Assembly: GCA_943354975.1 (NCBI GenBank)
Contig: CALRDS010000003.1
Coordinates: 1-34,395, forward strand
Length of the DNA: 34,395 nucleotides
Direction: 5' to 3'
Source of the DNA: Candidatus Nomurabacteria bacterium
GTDB lineage: Bacteria; Patescibacteriota; Minisyncoccia; Phycocordibacterales; UBA5272
Part shown: positions 22,266-26,657 of the stretch, piece after piece
How positions within the stretch are numbered: position 1 is the first letter of the stretch
Layout of the letters: every line of letters starts with the position of its first letter
Program-made: the position numbers and the translations under genes
The notes under the pieces: generated by a model
What the model was told of the DNA's origin: nothing
What the model saw: only the letters and a program-made list of their open reading frames with translations
Database searches by the model: none

Positions 22266-23354
22266 ATGAACCCAACACCACAACCTCAATCAGGAACAGT
22301 TACACCCACAACACACAAGTCAGTTATTGATCGCGGTGCAGGACGAGTGGATATAAATAAACGCAAGATAATAAATGGTGAAGGGGCAGACGTGGTACAG
22401 CTTTGGCCGATAAAGCATAAGTTCGCATGGGAAGCATATAACGTCGGTAATGCGAATCACTGGCTTCCTACAGAGATCAGTATGCAACTAGACATCGAAC
22501 AGTGGCGTGCACAGAATGTTTTAACAGCAGATGAGCGTCATGCATTTCGTACAGTGCTCGGATTCTTTACTACAGCGGATTCAATCGCAGCGAATAATTT
22601 GGTCCTAGCATTTTATAAACACATCACATCTCCTGAGGCACGATTGTATTTACTCCGTCAAGCATATGAAGAGGCAGTACATACTCATGCGTATCAATAC
22701 ATGGTGGAGTCTTTAGGACTTGATGGTACAGAGATATTTAACATGTATCGTGAGGTGGATGCAATTTATGATAAAGATGAATTTATCTTGTCATTCAATC
22801 AAGGAATCTTTGACCCACATTTCAAAACAGGAACTTTTGAAAATGATCAAAAGTTTTTAGAAAACATGTGTGTATTCTCACTAATTCTTGAAGGAATATT
22901 TTTCTATTCATCATTTGCAGTTATGTTTGGATTTCAGCGACAGGGGAAGTTGGTAGGTTCAGCTGAGCAGATTCAATACATCATGCGTGATGAGAGTAAT
23001 CATATGAACTTCGGTATTGATATGATAAATACTATAAAGCAAGAACAGCCAGAACTCTGGACTCTAGCTTTTGTGGAGAGAATTACAGCGCTTGTGAAGA
23101 AAGCGGTGGAGTTGGAATATAAATTCGCAGTTGAAGTTTTCCCAAAGGGAATATTTGGATTAAATGCAGATGGTTTCAAACAGTACATTGAACACATTGC
23201 AGACAGGAGACTTGCGCGTGTGGGAATAGATCAGGTGTATGGTTCAGCCAATCCATTCCCATGGATGAGTGAGGCGGTGGATTTGAGTAAGGAGAAGAAT
23301 TTTTTTGAAACGAGGGTTACCGAATACAAAACTGGGGGCACTCTCGACTGGTAG
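22266..23354 (+). CDS. nrdB: Class Ia ribonucleotide reductase beta subunit
   Basis: ADS, EEAVHTHAY (radical Tyr present), EGIFFYSSF, RDESNH and NFFETRV motifs. Confidence 0.97.
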   Translation: MNPTPQPQSGTVTPTTHKSVIDRGAGRVDINKRKIINGEGADVVQLWPIKHKFAWEAYNVGNANHWLPTEISMQLDIEQWRAQNVLTADERHAFRTVLGFFTTADSIAANNLVLAFYKHITSPEARLYLLRQAYEEAVHTHAYQYMVESLGLDGTEIFNMYREVDAIYDKDEFILSFNQGIFDPHFKTGTFENDQKFLENMCVFSLILEGIFFYSSFAVMFGFQRQGKLVGSAEQIQYIMRDESNHMNFGIDMINTIKQEQPELWTLAFVERITALVKKAVELEYKFAVEVFPKGIFGLNADGFKQYIEHIADRRLARVGIDQVYGSANPFPWMSEAVDLSKEKNFFETRVTEYKTGGTLDW

Positions 23355-23481
23355 TTATTTCGCCAGAAATTACTTCATCTACTTCGTTGTGGAGCCTCGT
23401 TTGCTCCTCAATGTAGTGGTACCTACATCTCGTCACAAACTTCTCCACGCCTTGTATCTAAAGCAATTTCTTACGAAATAA
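23355..23481 (+). repeat. Palindromic dispersed element, family A, copy 2
   Basis: CATCTACTTCGTTGTGGAG...CTCCACGCCTTGTATCT; compensatory changes relative to copy 1. Confidence 0.8.
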
Positions 23482-23504
23482 AAAAGCCCCAAATAAATGG
23501 GGAA

Positions 23505-23666
23505 ATAAAAAAGGGGACGCGCTTGCTGTTGCTTTGCGTCCCCCGCCGACTTAAGTATTTAAGACCATTACCGTGTTGTCTTACACCTCGGAATGCTTTA
23601 GGAGCTTTCTCGTCCCTTAGCACGCCAGACACGGGAGGAAGCGCGATTGTTACCTAGGCTTCACAC
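23505..23666 (-). ncRNA. Candidate ~160-nt structured RNA, family unknown
   Basis: TTGACA-16-TATAAT at 23673-23700, stem 23571-23576/23629-23634, terminator 23505-23543, no ORF of 60 aa or more in the track. Confidence 0.5.
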
Positions 23667-23672
23667 CCTTTA

Positions 23673-23700
23673 ATTATACACCCTGTGAATCTTTTGTCAA
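23673..23700 (-). promoter_or_regulatory. Consensus sigma70 promoter
   Basis: TTGACA-16 nt-TATAAT. Confidence 0.75.
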
Positions 23701-23721
23701 CCCTATAAGATTTGAATATAA

Positions 23722-23912
23722 AAAGAAAAAACCGGGGGTGAGCCGGTTGCAGGTGTGCATCCAAACTAGGGATTTGGATATGGGATCGCACGCCTTAGAT
23801 TTACTACTCGCACCAAACAAGTTGTGTGCGCCTATGGAAGTAGCCCTAGATTTTCACCTCCCGAGAAACGGGTATGGGCCTCACTACCTGCACCACGACG
23901 ACCGGAAAGGCG
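23722..23912 (-). ncRNA. Candidate multi-hairpin RNA, family unknown
   Basis: Closing stem 23748-23754/23886-23892 enclosing three hairpin arms; terminator-like hairpin plus A-run at 23722-23748. Confidence 0.45.
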
Positions 23913-23930
23913 TATTAATATATTAACATA

Positions 23931-23966
23931 AAAATAAAAACCGGGGAGGAGATGAGTCCTGCCCGG
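23931..23966 (-). terminator. Intrinsic terminator of the GNAT gene
   Basis: A-run plus CCGGG.AGGA/TCCT.CCCGG hairpin. Confidence 0.75.
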
Positions 23967-23973
23967 AATAAAT

Positions 23974-24534
23974 TTATTGTTTCTTTGAAGCTTTCTTCCA
24001 GTTGTCGTAGAAGCATGCAAGAGTTGCTACGTCTACCCAGCCACCTTCACGGAATAACTGTTCTTTCAATATTCCTTCGACTACGTATCCGCAACGTTTG
24101 CTATAGGCGAGGCTTGCTTTGTTTCGCACATCGACGTGTGAAATGATTTTATGCATTCCGAGAGTTTCGAATGCATACTGGAGCATCACCATCTTCGCGT
24201 CAGTGGCGTAGCCTTTTCCGCGAAGATTTTTCTCGCCGATGATCGTTCCAGTTAACGTATGACGATTCACCCAGTCGATACCGTGCAATCCCATCACGCC
24301 GATGGTGCGACGATTTCTTTTAGTCTCTATCATCATCACTATGTCGTTTGGGTTTTTCGACAGGTTGCCTATCTTTTTAACCCAGTCCTCTTCTTCCATT
24401 TCCGTCATCGGAAATGTACGTGCCAGATAGACCCTCGTTTCTGGATCATTTATCCAGCGTGTGAAAAGCGGGATATCTGACATCGAGACGGGACGGAGAA
24501 TGGTTTTCTTTCCGGAGAGGAATACGTTTGTCAT
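23974..24534 (-). CDS. GNAT N-acetyltransferase, RimJ/RimL family
   Basis: ILRP, RGKGYATDA, NKASL....RCGYVVEG motifs; AGGAG SD. Confidence 0.92.
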   Translation of the reverse strand: MTNVFLSGKKTILRPVSMSDIPLFTRWINDPETRVYLARTFPMTEMEEEDWVKKIGNLSKNPNDIVMMIETKRNRRTIGVMGLHGIDWVNRHTLTGTIIGEKNLRGKGYATDAKMVMLQYAFETLGMHKIISHVDVRNKASLAYSKRCGYVVEGILKEQLFREGGWVDVATLACFYDNWKKASKKQ

Positions 24535-24551
24535 GGTTGACTCCTGGTGGT

Positions 24552-24722
24552 TTAAAAGAACAGAGCATCACATTATGTGATGCTCTGTAGGCCTTTATTA
24601 TTTATATATAGATTTCGTTATAAAGATTCACCCAGCATCACACAATTAAAATACGCCACAGGATTAATACCTGAGAGGTTCGCAAAACGCATATTTGTAT
24701 GTGATGACTGTGTCTTTGCCAT
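24552..24722 (-). promoter_or_regulatory. Four-segment transcription attenuator in the GNAT leader
   Basis: Mutually exclusive pairings 24698-24710 : 24633-24644 : 24575-24588 : 24560-24573; the last pair is a perfect hairpin followed by TCTTTT. Confidence 0.75.
24618..24722 (-). CDS. Putative 34-aa leader peptide MAKTQSSHTNMRFANLSGINPVAYFNCVMLGESL
   Basis: Translated by hand; covers attenuator segments 1 and 2; TTGACA at 24752-24757 would place the transcription start near its ATG. Confidence 0.55.
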   Translation of the reverse strand: MAKTQSSHTNMRFANLSGINPVAYFNCVMLGESL

Positions 24723-24773
24723 AATTTATTTCTACTATATATAAGTTTTTGTGTCAAGAAAGATTTTTTGGAA

Positions 24774-24848
24774 CAGGGTAGTGTAAGTTGGCCTCGCACT
24801 TTGTACGTTTCGACATCAGACGAAACAATGACAACTTCTACTACCCTG
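24774..24848. repeat. Palindromic dispersed element, family B, copy 2
   Basis: About 60 of 76 positions identical to the reverse complement of 11000-11075; terminal 17 nt identical. Confidence 0.85.
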
Positions 24849-24878
24849 AATAAAAAAGCCCCGCACGAATGTGCGGGG
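24849..24878 (-). terminator. Intrinsic terminator
   Basis: AAAAAAG CCCCGCAC-gaat-GTGCGGGG. Confidence 0.85.
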
Positions 24879-24941
24879 GGTGTCCCAAGTGGGAGGGGAG
24901 GGACAAAGGAGCTGCGGCAAAATCGGGGTAGTGTGCGCTTG

Positions 24942-25088
24942 TTATTCGAGGAAAAGCGCAACGAAGATCTTCATCATCGTATTTTCCGGGTTGACTGTGA
25001 GCACAAAGTACGCGGTGAGCAGTATTGCGAATGCAACTGCAACCACGAAGCTCAGCACCGGCTTCTGAGGCGGGTAATCGTTTTTCAT
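24942..25088 (-). CDS. 48-aa small membrane protein, not in the ORF track
   Basis: MKNDYPPQKPVLSFVVAVAFAILLTAYFVLTVNPENTMMKIFVALFLE; AAGGGAG SD; own promoter and terminator. Confidence 0.7.
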   Translation of the reverse strand: MKNDYPPQKPVLSFVVAVAFAILLTAYFVLTVNPENTMMKIFVALFLE

Positions 25089-25255: not shown

Positions 25256-25657
25256 ATGCACTTGAAAACGAAATTGATAGATTTGATTCACGAGTACCCG
25301 AAGCCGATAGCTATCTCAGGGTGTCTCAGGGAAACTCTCAGCTCCTTGGGTTATCTGCGTGATGAAGCACCGCTTATGGTTTCTGAAGAGGGGGACGTAA
25401 GAATCTGGTTTAGAATCTTCGAAGGTAGAAAGTTCGTAGATGTTCATTTGGATGAGCCAGACTTTTCTTGAGAAGAGCTACAAAATTTTTGGAGTTCTCT
25501 TACCGAGGAATGGAGTAAGGCTAGCCCTGAAGAAATTCTCGCAGTCATGAATATGTTCAAAGATGAAAAGGTGATTGCTGACCTAAAAAGGGTTCTTTAC
25601 GAAAAGGGGATGACTAGGTGGCATGCAAACTTTGCCCCCGCAACGTCCTTTCACTGA
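25256..25657 (+). pseudogene. Hypothetical gene interrupted by one in-frame TGA (25469-25471)
   Basis: The frame stays open for 61 further codons after the TGA and ends just before a terminator at 25677-25702; the start is uncertain. Confidence 0.55.
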
Positions 25658-25676
25658 TTCCTCTACGGTTTACATT

Positions 25677-25702
25677 AGATCCGCTACGGCGGGTTTTCTT
25701 TT
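25677..25702 (+). terminator. Intrinsic terminator
   Basis: ATCCGC-tacg-GCGGGT followed by a T-run. Confidence 0.7.
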
Positions 25703-25718
25703 TGCTATACTATTAAGT

Positions 25719-26657
25719 ATGATAAATGTTTCGAAAAGTTTGCCAGATATCGCAGTCTTGCGAGGTGGAACAAAAGAATTTAAGAAGTCTCTCACAGATG
25801 GAGGAGAGGTGCTCTCTTCACTTTCTAAAATAGGATATCAACCACTCGATGTTTTGATTACTGATAATGGTCAGTGGACTGTGCGCGGAAGACCGACTGA
25901 TGCACATGAAATATTTTCTAGGTCACATACAATAATAGACACAACAAGAGAAATAAATAAAGATTATCATGACCTAGCACGTCGCATGGGAATACCACTT
26001 ATGCTATCGAAAGATCACAACATGACTTTAAGTCGTGAAGACATGTATAGAATATTACGCCAACAAGGAATACGAGTACCAGACACTATTACAATACGTG
26101 CGAGTGAACCACTTTTAGATACTGACCTTCGTGATATTTGGTCCACGTATCATACACCACTTATCGTACGATCTCTTCATAGAAATGAAACTGCACCATC
26201 TAAACTTGTTCGAATGTTTCAAGATTTGGAAAACGCCGTGCGTGATTATCATGGAAGAGGAATAGATGTGCATGTGATGACATACAGACGTGTTCCGACA
26301 TCATCTGTCGCAGTATTACCAAACTTTCACGGTCAGGAACTCTACACACCACTATGGGTAGATACTTTCGCGGGTATTAATGAGATACCAAATAGTTCTG
26401 CAAATATGAGTGCACATCACCAAGCTCCACAATTTAGAAAAGATCAGATTAGAGAATTTGTTACAAAAACATATGACGCATTAGGATTAACTGGGCCTGC
26501 ATGTATAGACGTTATTCAGCATAATAATGGATATATAGTAGTAAATGTAGATCCAGCACCTTCTTTTAGAAAAGATAGTAGATTTACTAAGTCTCTTGAA
26601 TCAACTGGTTCAAGTATTGGTCAATATATTCACTCACACATCGTATCGTCATTATAA
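25719..26657 (+). CDS. Degenerate D-Ala-D-Ala ligase-like ATP-grasp protein (start moved to 25719)
   Basis: IAVLRGG...SL..G N-terminus, GIRVP, and a C-terminal pattern like Ddl but with RID/EVN replaced by CID/NVD. Confidence 0.7.
   Translation: MINVSKSLPDIAVLRGGTKEFKKSLTDGGEVLSSLSKIGYQPLDVLITDNGQWTVRGRPTDAHEIFSRSHTIIDTTREINKDYHDLARRMGIPLMLSKDHNMTLSREDMYRILRQQGIRVPDTITIRASEPLLDTDLRDIWSTYHTPLIVRSLHRNETAPSKLVRMFQDLENAVRDYHGRGIDVHVMTYRRVPTSSVAVLPNFHGQELYTPLWVDTFAGINEIPNSSANMSAHHQAPQFRKDQIREFVTKTYDALGLTGPACIDVIQHNNGYIVVNVDPAPSFRKDSRFTKSLESTGSSIGQYIHSHIVSSL

Follow-up and report, generated by a model that had tools for sequence, protein, structure and literature searches.

The locus described here raises the question of how a stand-alone N-acetyltransferase gene of an ultra-small bacterium is switched on, and which signal operates the switch. 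The gene lies on the minus strand of a 34,395-nucleotide stretch of Candidatus Nomurabacteria DNA (contig CALRDS010000003.1 of assembly GCA_943354975.1), hereafter called the window; the host genome (580 kb, 91% complete) is of the type called CPR (Candidate Phyla Radiation)/Patescibacteria. These bacteria account for a large share of bacterial diversity and have tiny genomes with few transcription factors, and to our knowledge almost no gene regulation has been characterised in them. The leader preceding the gene is most probably a ribosome-mediated transcription attenuator that acts through a leaderless leader peptide and controls a SpeG-like enzyme of the GNAT family. This interpretation is built on what the sequences show, namely how the leader is laid out, how far that layout is conserved, which alternative pairings it allows and how the promoter is spaced; the signal itself can be proposed only tentatively.

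Layout and folding of the leader

The leader contains a short upstream open reading frame (uORF), four segments capable of alternative pairing and an intrinsic terminator, all on the minus strand at the positions given by the first-pass annotation of the sequence. The features follow in the direction of transcription.

24729-24757, minus strand: promoter, with -35 TTGACA at 24757-24752, a 17-nt spacer and -10 TAGAAA at 24734-24729
24618-24722, minus strand: uORF of 34 codons plus TAA, MAKTQSSHTNMRFANLSGINPVAYFNCVMLGESL (ORF translation)
24698-24710, minus strand: segment 1, CAGTCATCACATA, 5' strand of the anti-antiterminator, codons 5-9 (minimum free energy folds, repeat)
24690-24695, minus strand: AAT ATG (Asn-Met, codons 10-11), immediately 3' of segment 1 (proposed stall site)
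24647-24689, minus strand: central hairpin closing the 1:2 stem, its sequence differing among relatives (folds, alignments A2 and A3)
24633-24644, minus strand: segment 2, TGTGTGATGCTG, encoding C-V-M-L; its partner is segment 1 or, as antiterminator, segment 3 (folds)
24576-24588, minus strand: segment 3, terminator 5' arm, ACAGAGCATCACA (hairpin scan, folds)
24560-24572, minus strand: segment 4, terminator 3' arm, TGTGATGCTCTGT (hairpin scan, folds)
24551-24559, minus strand: T tract TCTTTTAAA, expected release point of attenuated transcripts (hairpin scan)
24545-24541, minus strand: Shine-Dalgarno sequence AGGAG of the GNAT gene (sequence)
24534-23974, minus strand: GNAT gene, SpeG-like N-acetyltransferase of 186 residues (Pfam, PDB profile, AlphaFold 2 model and Foldseek)

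The terminator consists of 13 perfect pairs closed by a TAA loop and followed by TCTTTT (24588-24560, hairpin scan). The minimum free energy structure of the full leader combines the 1:2 and 3:4 pairings (-52.4 kcal/mol, z -4.1, 0/200 shuffles as good), and the 2:3 pairing appears when the leader is folded without segment 4. Taken alone, the terminator reaches -20.4 kcal/mol (z -6.8) and the 2:3 element -19.6 kcal/mol (z -3.9), each with 0/200 shuffles as good, while the 1:2 stem-loop (-25.1 kcal/mol, z -2.1, 8/200 shuffles as good) is the weakest of the three pairings. The duplex between segment 2 and the terminator 5' arm is likewise stable (-14.7 kcal/mol, z -4.2, 0/100 shuffles as good), and exact 9-nt direct repeats link segment 2 with segment 4 and segment 1 with segment 3 (families D2 and D3). 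The 1:2/2:3/3:4 attenuator logic with a uORF, originally read from the letters alone, thus holds in the window, the alternative structures folding as had been predicted.

The GNAT ATG lies only 25 nt past the terminator stem, which leaves no room for a productive promoter of its own downstream of the hairpin; none fits there, although such a promoter had been named as an observation that would speak against the attenuator. A promoter-like site does occur within the leader (24624-24597, 9/12 match); a transcript from it would begin at the terminator and lack segment 2.

Conservation of the leader plan

GNAT homologues were gathered from species-representative genomes, same-genus relatives, same-class genomes and metagenome contigs (the best 80 of 538 relatives being kept from the last); 114 loci reach 35% identity or more and have 200 nt or more of sequence upstream. 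A terminator-like hairpin is present in 94 of these loci, with a uORF beside it in 89. The comparison covers more than 80 distinct leaders from genomes and metagenomes: an ATG-initiated ORF of 27-60 residues ending -5 to 80 nt before the terminator is found in 80 of 87 distinct leaders against 14.1 expected, and the narrower arrangement, with the ORF ending 15-35 nt before the terminator, in 70 of 87 against 3.7. The expectations derive from shuffled leaders put through the identical picking procedure; an earlier test of ORF openness (median 0.09) was biased by selection and was set aside in favour of this pipeline-matched one. The median uORF is 35 residues long and its stop codon lies a median of 26 nt from the terminator. 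The search for matching architecture upstream of GNAT homologues, suggested when only the window was known, is therefore strongly positive and, judged from the sequences, the observation is not a chance feature.

In close relatives the leader is homologous and keeps the same 34-codon length. Five blocks are invariant among them, namely CACA, AATAT, TGTGATGC, GCATCACAT and GTTCTTT, with AATAT and GTTCTTT present in 9/9. The peptide end C/Y-V-M-L/P/Q-x-x-S-L is shared by 7/9, the stop codon following directly in six; one relative (L050) carries one codon more after the shared end, and another (L049) stops earlier. In distant homologues (36-52% protein identity) the leader sequence is quite different and the plan is unchanged.

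Two further leaders are recorded as observations in their own right. In the close relative L009 (G020:C87) the upstream ATG of the uORF is missing, and only the Met after the conserved Asn can start a peptide, of 24 residues; only about 290 nt of the contig precede the GNAT start, some 85 nt of them upstream of the would-be uORF start, and no TTGACA-type promoter was found in the stretch up to the contig end. In L011 (G025:C2), from another family of the same order and with a GNAT of 34% identity, a probably leaderless uORF lies about 200 nt upstream of the gene; it is preceded by TTGACA-16-TATAAA-8-ATG, encodes 46 residues including A-N-M and is followed by a hairpin with no clear T tract. 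This leader suggests that the design may extend beyond the GNAT family studied.

The limits of the family were also probed. A leader of this kind, with uORF and terminator, is missing from L004-L006, homologues from outside the CPR (31-35% identity; Chloroflexota, Anaerolineaceae, Defluviitaleaceae). The pattern TTGACA-N28-34-ATG-N21-24-ATGAATA gives 15 matches in 13 of the 401 genomes of the class, against 2 for the reversed control; one is a GNAT leader, and the others are by eye unlike it. A scan of the host genome for promoter, ATG, short ORF and terminator yields 24 candidates, none leader-like, by a procedure insensitive enough to miss the real leader through its -10 filter. Clustering the uORFs at 60% nucleotide identity places 80 of 82 in one cluster and is uninformative. 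Rfam returns 0 matches over the whole window at the gathering score; in 24400-25000, with E up to 10, only sub-threshold hits appear, those in the leader being at best miRNA models, and a sub-threshold ylbH hit lies on the opposite strand across the neighbouring terminator.

Alternative pairings across subfamilies

When the leaders are folded without the terminator 3' arm, the 5' arm pairs in most loci with the last third of the uORF. Over 82 loci, the duplex between the 5' arm and the uORF region has a median z of -1.87, with 39 loci below -2, and in 21/82 loci 0/100 dinucleotide shuffles are as good. The partner ends within about 35 nt of the stop-codon end in 68/82 loci, typically 11-30 nt before it. 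The paired words are unrelated between subfamilies: GTGTGATGC/GCATCACA, GCTGGGGCAAT/ATTGCCTCGGC, TAGCCGTGATA/ATCTCGGCT, GGGCTGGTTTG/AAACCAGCC and TCGCCAGGGAGATTTTTG/AAAAATCTCCTGGCG. Since they differ wholly, the C-terminal half of the peptide follows the terminator sequence and is not conserved as protein; its words vary accordingly with the subfamily (CVML, AGAI, FSRD, WGDL, GWF, SLGQF and others).

Subfamily A3 offers a closer view with 11 leaders. Its 2:3 helix, as specified by the analyst, is 87.6% paired, compared with 20-43% when the strands are slid by 1-3 columns, and double changes occur in only 2/11 pairs. RNAalifold recovers the 1:2 pairing together with the terminator in this subfamily, with compensatory changes in 8/24 pairs. 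For the 1:2 pairing in general (68 loci), the stretch that pairs with segment 2 runs in most cases from codon 3-6 to codon 7-13. Alignments A2 and A3 both contain a hairpin-capable stretch of changing sequence between segments 1 and 2.

Promoter placement and the start of the uORF

In the window, the -10 element ends 6 nt before the uORF ATG, which places the predicted RNA start at or next to the A of this codon. The arrangement recurs: in 37/79 leaders, against 0.45 expected from shuffles, the uORF ATG is preceded by a perfect TTGACA whose end lies 28-34 nt away, and a control window of equal size inside the uORF contains a single one in the same 79 leaders. Both hexamers match at 4/6 or better, with the -10 lying 6-9 or 12 nt before the ATG, in 43/79 leaders, and in 41 of these 43 the -10 ends 6-9 nt before the ATG (16-18-nt spacer). 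The first promoter scan did not list the window promoter, its filter demanding T at position 6 of the -10.

With such spacing the first base of the RNA should fall on the AUG or no more than about 3 nt away, and the uORF is probably leaderless. A leaderless start would explain why no Shine-Dalgarno sequence precedes the uORF; the GNAT gene, in contrast, is preceded by AGGAG. The 34-residue uORF had been recognised in the first-pass annotation; its probable leaderless start had been overlooked.

A conserved motif at codons 9 to 11

The N-terminal part of the uORF carries a short conserved motif. A hydrophobic residue followed by Asn, with the Asn at codon 9 or 10, occurs in 42/82 uORFs against 3.8 expected from codon shuffles; with looser bounds the pair is found in 52 of the 82, and Asn-Met in 8 more. 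The fuller motif reads (Gln/Lys/His)-hydrophobic-Asn, and its form in the window is H-T-N-M (His-Thr-Asn-Met). It is carried by members of subfamilies with unrelated terminator arms and is therefore independent of the hairpin sequences. Pairing is predicted with the highest probability in segment 1, 19 to 6 nt upstream of the Asn codon, and the probability drops at the motif itself; a ribosome decoding the motif would consequently cover segment 1. The third-codon positions flanking the motif hold little information, as in coding sequence. On these sequence grounds, the motif at codons 9-11 is proposed as the likely stall site.

The surrounding composition calls for a more cautious reading. Codons 2-12 are enriched in His, Asn, Gln, Lys, Met and Tyr, and this enrichment is not taken as peptide conservation, being largely what an A/C-rich segment 1 encodes. 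A regulatory-codon run of the classical biosynthetic type is absent, in line with the earlier remark that the uORF has no amino-acid run, a remark that had passed over the single conserved Asn (AAT) codon beside segment 1. The known drug-arrest motifs (R/K-x-R/K, IFVI, penultimate Ala/Ser/Thr) are not conserved in the 82 peptides.

The acetyltransferase

The 186-residue protein matches Pfam Acetyltransf_3 (6.1e-24, 85.7 bits against a cut-off of 25.4), and at this level the initial designation as RimJ/RimL-type is correct. It does not extend to the NCBIfam models, all of which score below cut-off: RimL (NF007539) 30.6/184, RimJ (NF008072) 26.8/190, PseH 49.7/93.1 and SpeG (NF011709) 45.2/218 bits. 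A profile of 24 family members (alignment A1) searched against the PDB places SpeG spermidine N-acetyltransferases on top (3.7e-29 to 1.3e-23, nearly full length), followed by diamine acetyltransferases and then by aminoglycoside N6'-acetyltransferase chains (6.9e-22), which Foldseek titles 'putative acetyltransferase from Bacillus cereus'. RimJ (1.9e-13) and the MccE acetyltransferase (3r95, 6.4e-12) are far behind SpeG. The AlphaFold 2 model, with a mean predicted local distance difference test score of 89.3, leads to the same group, the top-ranked Foldseek rows being nearly all SpeG (TM score 0.76-0.82, identity 22-26%). The closest solved relatives by profile and fold are thus SpeG enzymes, the similarity to MccE, the type first considered, being far weaker. 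A Tyr of the GNAT aligns with the Tyr of the SpeG HVY motif, which we take to be the catalytic residue.

A conserved operon partner was considered and ruled out by the downstream neighbours, which differ from locus to locus: the same-strand downstream ORFs belong to unrelated or no Pfam families in 15/15 loci scanned. This indicates that the GNAT gene alone is the regulated gene.

Proposed mechanism

From these features we infer that the uORF is translated, that the ribosome stalls on it at a defined position, and that transcripts terminate or read through in vivo. Transcription would start at or within about 3 nt of the uORF AUG, where a 70S ribosome would initiate without a Shine-Dalgarno sequence. 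Two situations would keep the gene off. With no ribosome on the leader, the 1:2 and 3:4 pairings would form and transcription would stop at the T tract before the GNAT gene. A ribosome reaching the stop codon would cover segment 2, which across the family ends about 11-30 nt before the stop-codon end, and the terminator would form again. The gene would be on when a ribosome is stalled with about codon 9-11 in its decoding centre: segment 1 would be masked, segment 2 would pair with the emerging segment 3, no terminator would form and the GNAT gene would be transcribed.

Several observations weigh against this interpretation. By the simple finder, 20/114 loci have no terminator, and 22/82 uORFs have no motif as defined. 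The 1:2 pairing is weak over the 68 loci in which it was assessed (median z -1.22, 19 below -2), with 0/100 shuffles as good in only 5/68. Within the subfamily of the window leader, segments 2-4 hardly vary, and covariation is accordingly small. The richness of the N-terminal part in His, Lys, Gln and Asn is explainable without selection on the peptide, because segment 1 must mimic an A/C-rich terminator arm. Furthermore, the Asn codon is AAT in 56/60 cases, compared with 58.5% AAT in the cognate GNAT genes (nominal binomial p 1.4e-9, the sequences being non-independent), and the base after it is A in 51/60; what is conserved in the motif is thus in part the nucleotides or the codon, and need not be owed to the peptide. 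Finally, the statistics come from simple finders, and the loci share descent, so that the shuffle statistics overstate independence.

Candidate signals and alternative explanations

Which signal would stall the ribosome is less clear than the switch itself. It may be excess polyamine, slowing the ribosome on the peptide so that switch and enzyme form a homeostatic loop, a proposal that falls distinctly short of an even chance. In its favour, polyamines are what the enzyme's closest characterised relatives detoxify. The leader peptide would then sense, as a nascent chain, how much polyamine is present, or else a polycationic translation inhibitor that resembles a polyamine, with a stall after only about 10 residues; this specific view is speculative and is held with low confidence. 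A stall on (Q/K/H)-hydrophobic-Asn would open the intrinsic-terminator switch and induce a polyamine-neutralising acetyltransferase. The polyamine guess has to contend with the SpeG score far below the NCBIfam cut-off (45.2 vs 218 bits) and with the spermidine synthase (PF01564), not found in the 91%-complete host genome, so that any polyamine would be imported. In addition, BLASTP finds nothing to align between the uORF peptide and Escherichia coli MdtU with E up to 100.

A ribosome-targeting, probably polycationic, antibiotic is a possible though doubtful alternative: the drug would stall the ribosome early in the uORF and induce the GNAT that acetylates it. Candidates would be aminoglycosides, streptothricin-, edeine- or puromycin-like compounds, and processed aminoacyl-adenylate 'Trojan horse' antibiotics. 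At the predicted stall the nascent chain would be only 9-10 residues long, a length in the range of arrest peptides that respond to drugs, among them ermCL, ermBL and cmlAL. The characteristic arrest motifs of such peptides, R/K-x-R/K, IFVI and Ala/Ser/Thr at the penultimate position, are not conserved in the family, which speaks against a drug. The gene is found in 7/53 genomes of the genus and 37/401 sampled genomes of the class (E up to 1e-30), an accessory-gene pattern as patchy as that of a resistance gene, and AAC(6') enzymes are the next-best PDB relatives after the SpeG group; the best profile and fold match is nevertheless SpeG and no drug-modifying GNAT, with MccE at 6.4e-12. Sensory uORFs responding to multiple drugs are known, toiL being an example in the account of PMC12121999. 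A translation-inhibiting antibiotic had been the inducer favoured at first, and no result obtained here shows that it is. Some signal of another kind altogether would be a rather unlikely outcome.

Sensing of charged tRNA is less likely still. The conserved AAT would be a 'hungry codon', and the attenuator would fire when Asn-tRNA(Asn) is scarce; this could happen if the non-discriminating AspRS/GatCAB route is blocked, for instance by aspartyl-adenylate mimics, or if the amide donor is short. The Asn stands directly 3' of segment 1, in the place of trp-type regulatory codons, it is present in the 60/82 uORFs that can be anchored on the motif, and the wobble-read AAT excess described above would suit such a sensor. 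The host genome encodes GatB (351 bits) and no AsnRS above the NCBIfam cut-off (best 102 vs 342.6 bits), so that Asn-tRNA is probably made indirectly, by transamidation; with a genome 91% complete, an AsnRS could nevertheless be unassembled. Against a codon sensor stand the single regulatory codon in place of a run and the fact that the hydrophobic and Gln/Lys/His positions beside it are conserved too, although a sensor of the codon alone could do without them. No evident logic links Asn supply to a SpeG-like acetyltransferase, and the MccE-type similarity is weak.

It is very improbable that the attenuator works through RNA or protein only, as a riboswitch or the target of an RNA-binding protein, with the uORF incidental. 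The alternative structures could switch by themselves, polyamines remodel RNA structure according to the description in PMC7815308, and the conservation of the motif is partly at the nucleotide level. An open frame kept in 80/87 loci and a promoter set so that the RNA begins at the ATG are however unexplained without translation; no Rfam family is matched at the gathering score, the leader hits being sub-threshold miRNA models, and no conserved sequence core exists between segments 1 and 2 across the subfamilies. As for no regulation at all, with the uORF an independent small-protein gene, the GNAT expressed by leaky readthrough and the pairings fortuitous, the strong terminator (-20.4 kcal/mol) would indeed end a small-gene transcript, yet the C-terminal half of the peptide tracks the terminator arm and shows no conservation at the protein level, complementary 2:3 partners recur although their sequences are unrelated (21/82 loci, 0/100 shuffles as good) and the 25 nt between the hairpin and the GNAT hold no promoter for this gene, which together make this reading extremely improbable.

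Surroundings of the leader

Upstream of the leader, a second terminator separates the attenuator from the preceding gene.

24850-24878, minus strand: intrinsic terminator of the preceding small gene, CCCCGCAC-ATTC-GTGCGGGG then CTTTTTTATT (8 pairs, 7 of them G-C)

With this terminator and its own promoter, the GNAT leader forms a separate unit, insulated from upstream transcription. The preceding small ORF (24942-25088, minus strand) encodes a hydrophobic peptide of 48 residues, MKNDYPPQKPVLSFVVAVAFAILLTAYFVLTVNPENTMMKIFVALFLE, with no Pfam or NCBIfam family match; its terminator (24878-24859) is strong and its promoter (25170-25142) is an 11/12 match with an extended TG.

On the other side of the GNAT gene, a stretch of 620 nt without genes lies between it and nrdB (23354-23974, minus strand). 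Within it lie TTGACA-16-TATAAT (23700-23673), which is a perfect promoter, a hairpin resembling a terminator (23748-23730) and, near 23545-23478, more G+C-rich hairpins with T tracts. The stretch may encode one or two small RNAs; it has no Rfam match at E up to 0.1, and its fold z values are unremarkable (-0.7, -1.1). Elsewhere in the window, positions 25623-26657 on the plus strand encode a protein of 344 residues with a weak match (5.9e-9) to the D-Ala-D-Ala ligase C-terminal (ATP-grasp) domain and an unusual hydrophobic stretch at its N-terminus. The sequencing runs listed for the stretch number seven, and they are freshwater or drinking-water DNA metagenomes.

Novelty and meaning

The class of mechanism is textbook, and leaderless regulatory ORFs are already known. 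The leader family, the motif, the host clade and the coupling to a SpeG-like enzyme are not represented in Rfam and did not turn up in the literature searched; among the papers found there, none describes, for CPR, Patescibacteria or Saccharibacteria, a GNAT or speG gene preceded by an attenuator or a leader peptide. The element appears to represent a widespread cis-regulatory family that recurs in many ultra-small (CPR) bacteria, and it suggests that these make use of leaderless translation, of intrinsic terminators and of their ribosomes as sensors. The conserved motif at the proposed stall site would be a concrete, short and testable candidate for an arrest peptide, and the whole element can be tested in cell-free systems with no need to cultivate the organism.

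If the ligand is a polyamine, the attenuator would constitute a new type of bacterial polyamine homeostasis circuit, a self-contained loop in genome-reduced CPR. In function such a loop would correspond to the antizyme and AMD1-uORF circuits of eukaryotes, and its mechanism would set it apart from mdtU and speFL, which depend on Rho. If the ligand is an antibiotic, the gene would be an inducible resistance gene circulating among uncultivated episymbionts.

Comparison with known systems

With the trp/his/leu-type attenuators of enterobacteria, the element shares a leader ORF, whose translation is predicted here, the mutually exclusive 1:2, 2:3 and 3:4 pairings and an intrinsic terminator just before the gene, and in both a stall next to segment 1 would lead to readthrough. 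In contrast to these attenuators, a single conserved Asn codon within a short motif replaces the run of regulatory codons, an acetyltransferase gene takes the place of a biosynthetic operon, and the uORF is probably leaderless, with its stop codon past segment 2 and not between segments 1 and 2.

Drug-inducible leader peptides acting by transcription attenuation are described for Bacillus subtilis bmrB-bmrCD (PMC4191407) and for mef/msr(D) (PMC4335068, PMC10314930). Like these systems and toiL, as the cited accounts present them, the element would combine a sensory uORF and a short nascent chain with a stalled ribosome that remodels the leader and turns on a protective gene; as far as the same accounts go, it differs from them in that no known arrest motif is common to it. 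Escherichia coli toiL relies, in the portrayal of PMC12121999, on occlusion of the ribosome-binding site and on Rho, whereas an intrinsic terminator is present here.

As regards polyamines, PMC7815308 describes Escherichia coli mdtU-mdtJI, which encodes a spermidine exporter and whose induction by spermidine needs translation of a 34-codon uORF. From that account, mdtU-mdtJI and speFL-speF resemble the element in placing a polyamine-handling gene under a uORF of about 34 codons with control by premature termination. They differ in using Rho, in the C-terminal conservation of the peptide and in a stall near the stop codon; the element has an intrinsic terminator and N-terminal conservation, and its uORF shows no sequence similarity to MdtU. 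Among enzymes, SpeG is the best profile and fold match over the whole length, with the Tyr of the HVY motif aligned; identity is only 22-26%, and the NCBIfam SpeG cut-off is missed.

The predicted leaderless start finds its parallels in the mycobacterial polycysteine attenuators (bioRxiv 10.1101/834739) and in the leaderless leader peptides of Deinococcus deserti (PMC4007540). In these cases, to the extent that the two sources describe them, the gene under control is likewise preceded by a short regulatory ORF that begins with a 5'-terminal AUG. The CPR element differs from both in phylum, in the regulated gene and in the peptide motif and, set beside these accounts, is distinguished by a clear three-hairpin terminator switch.

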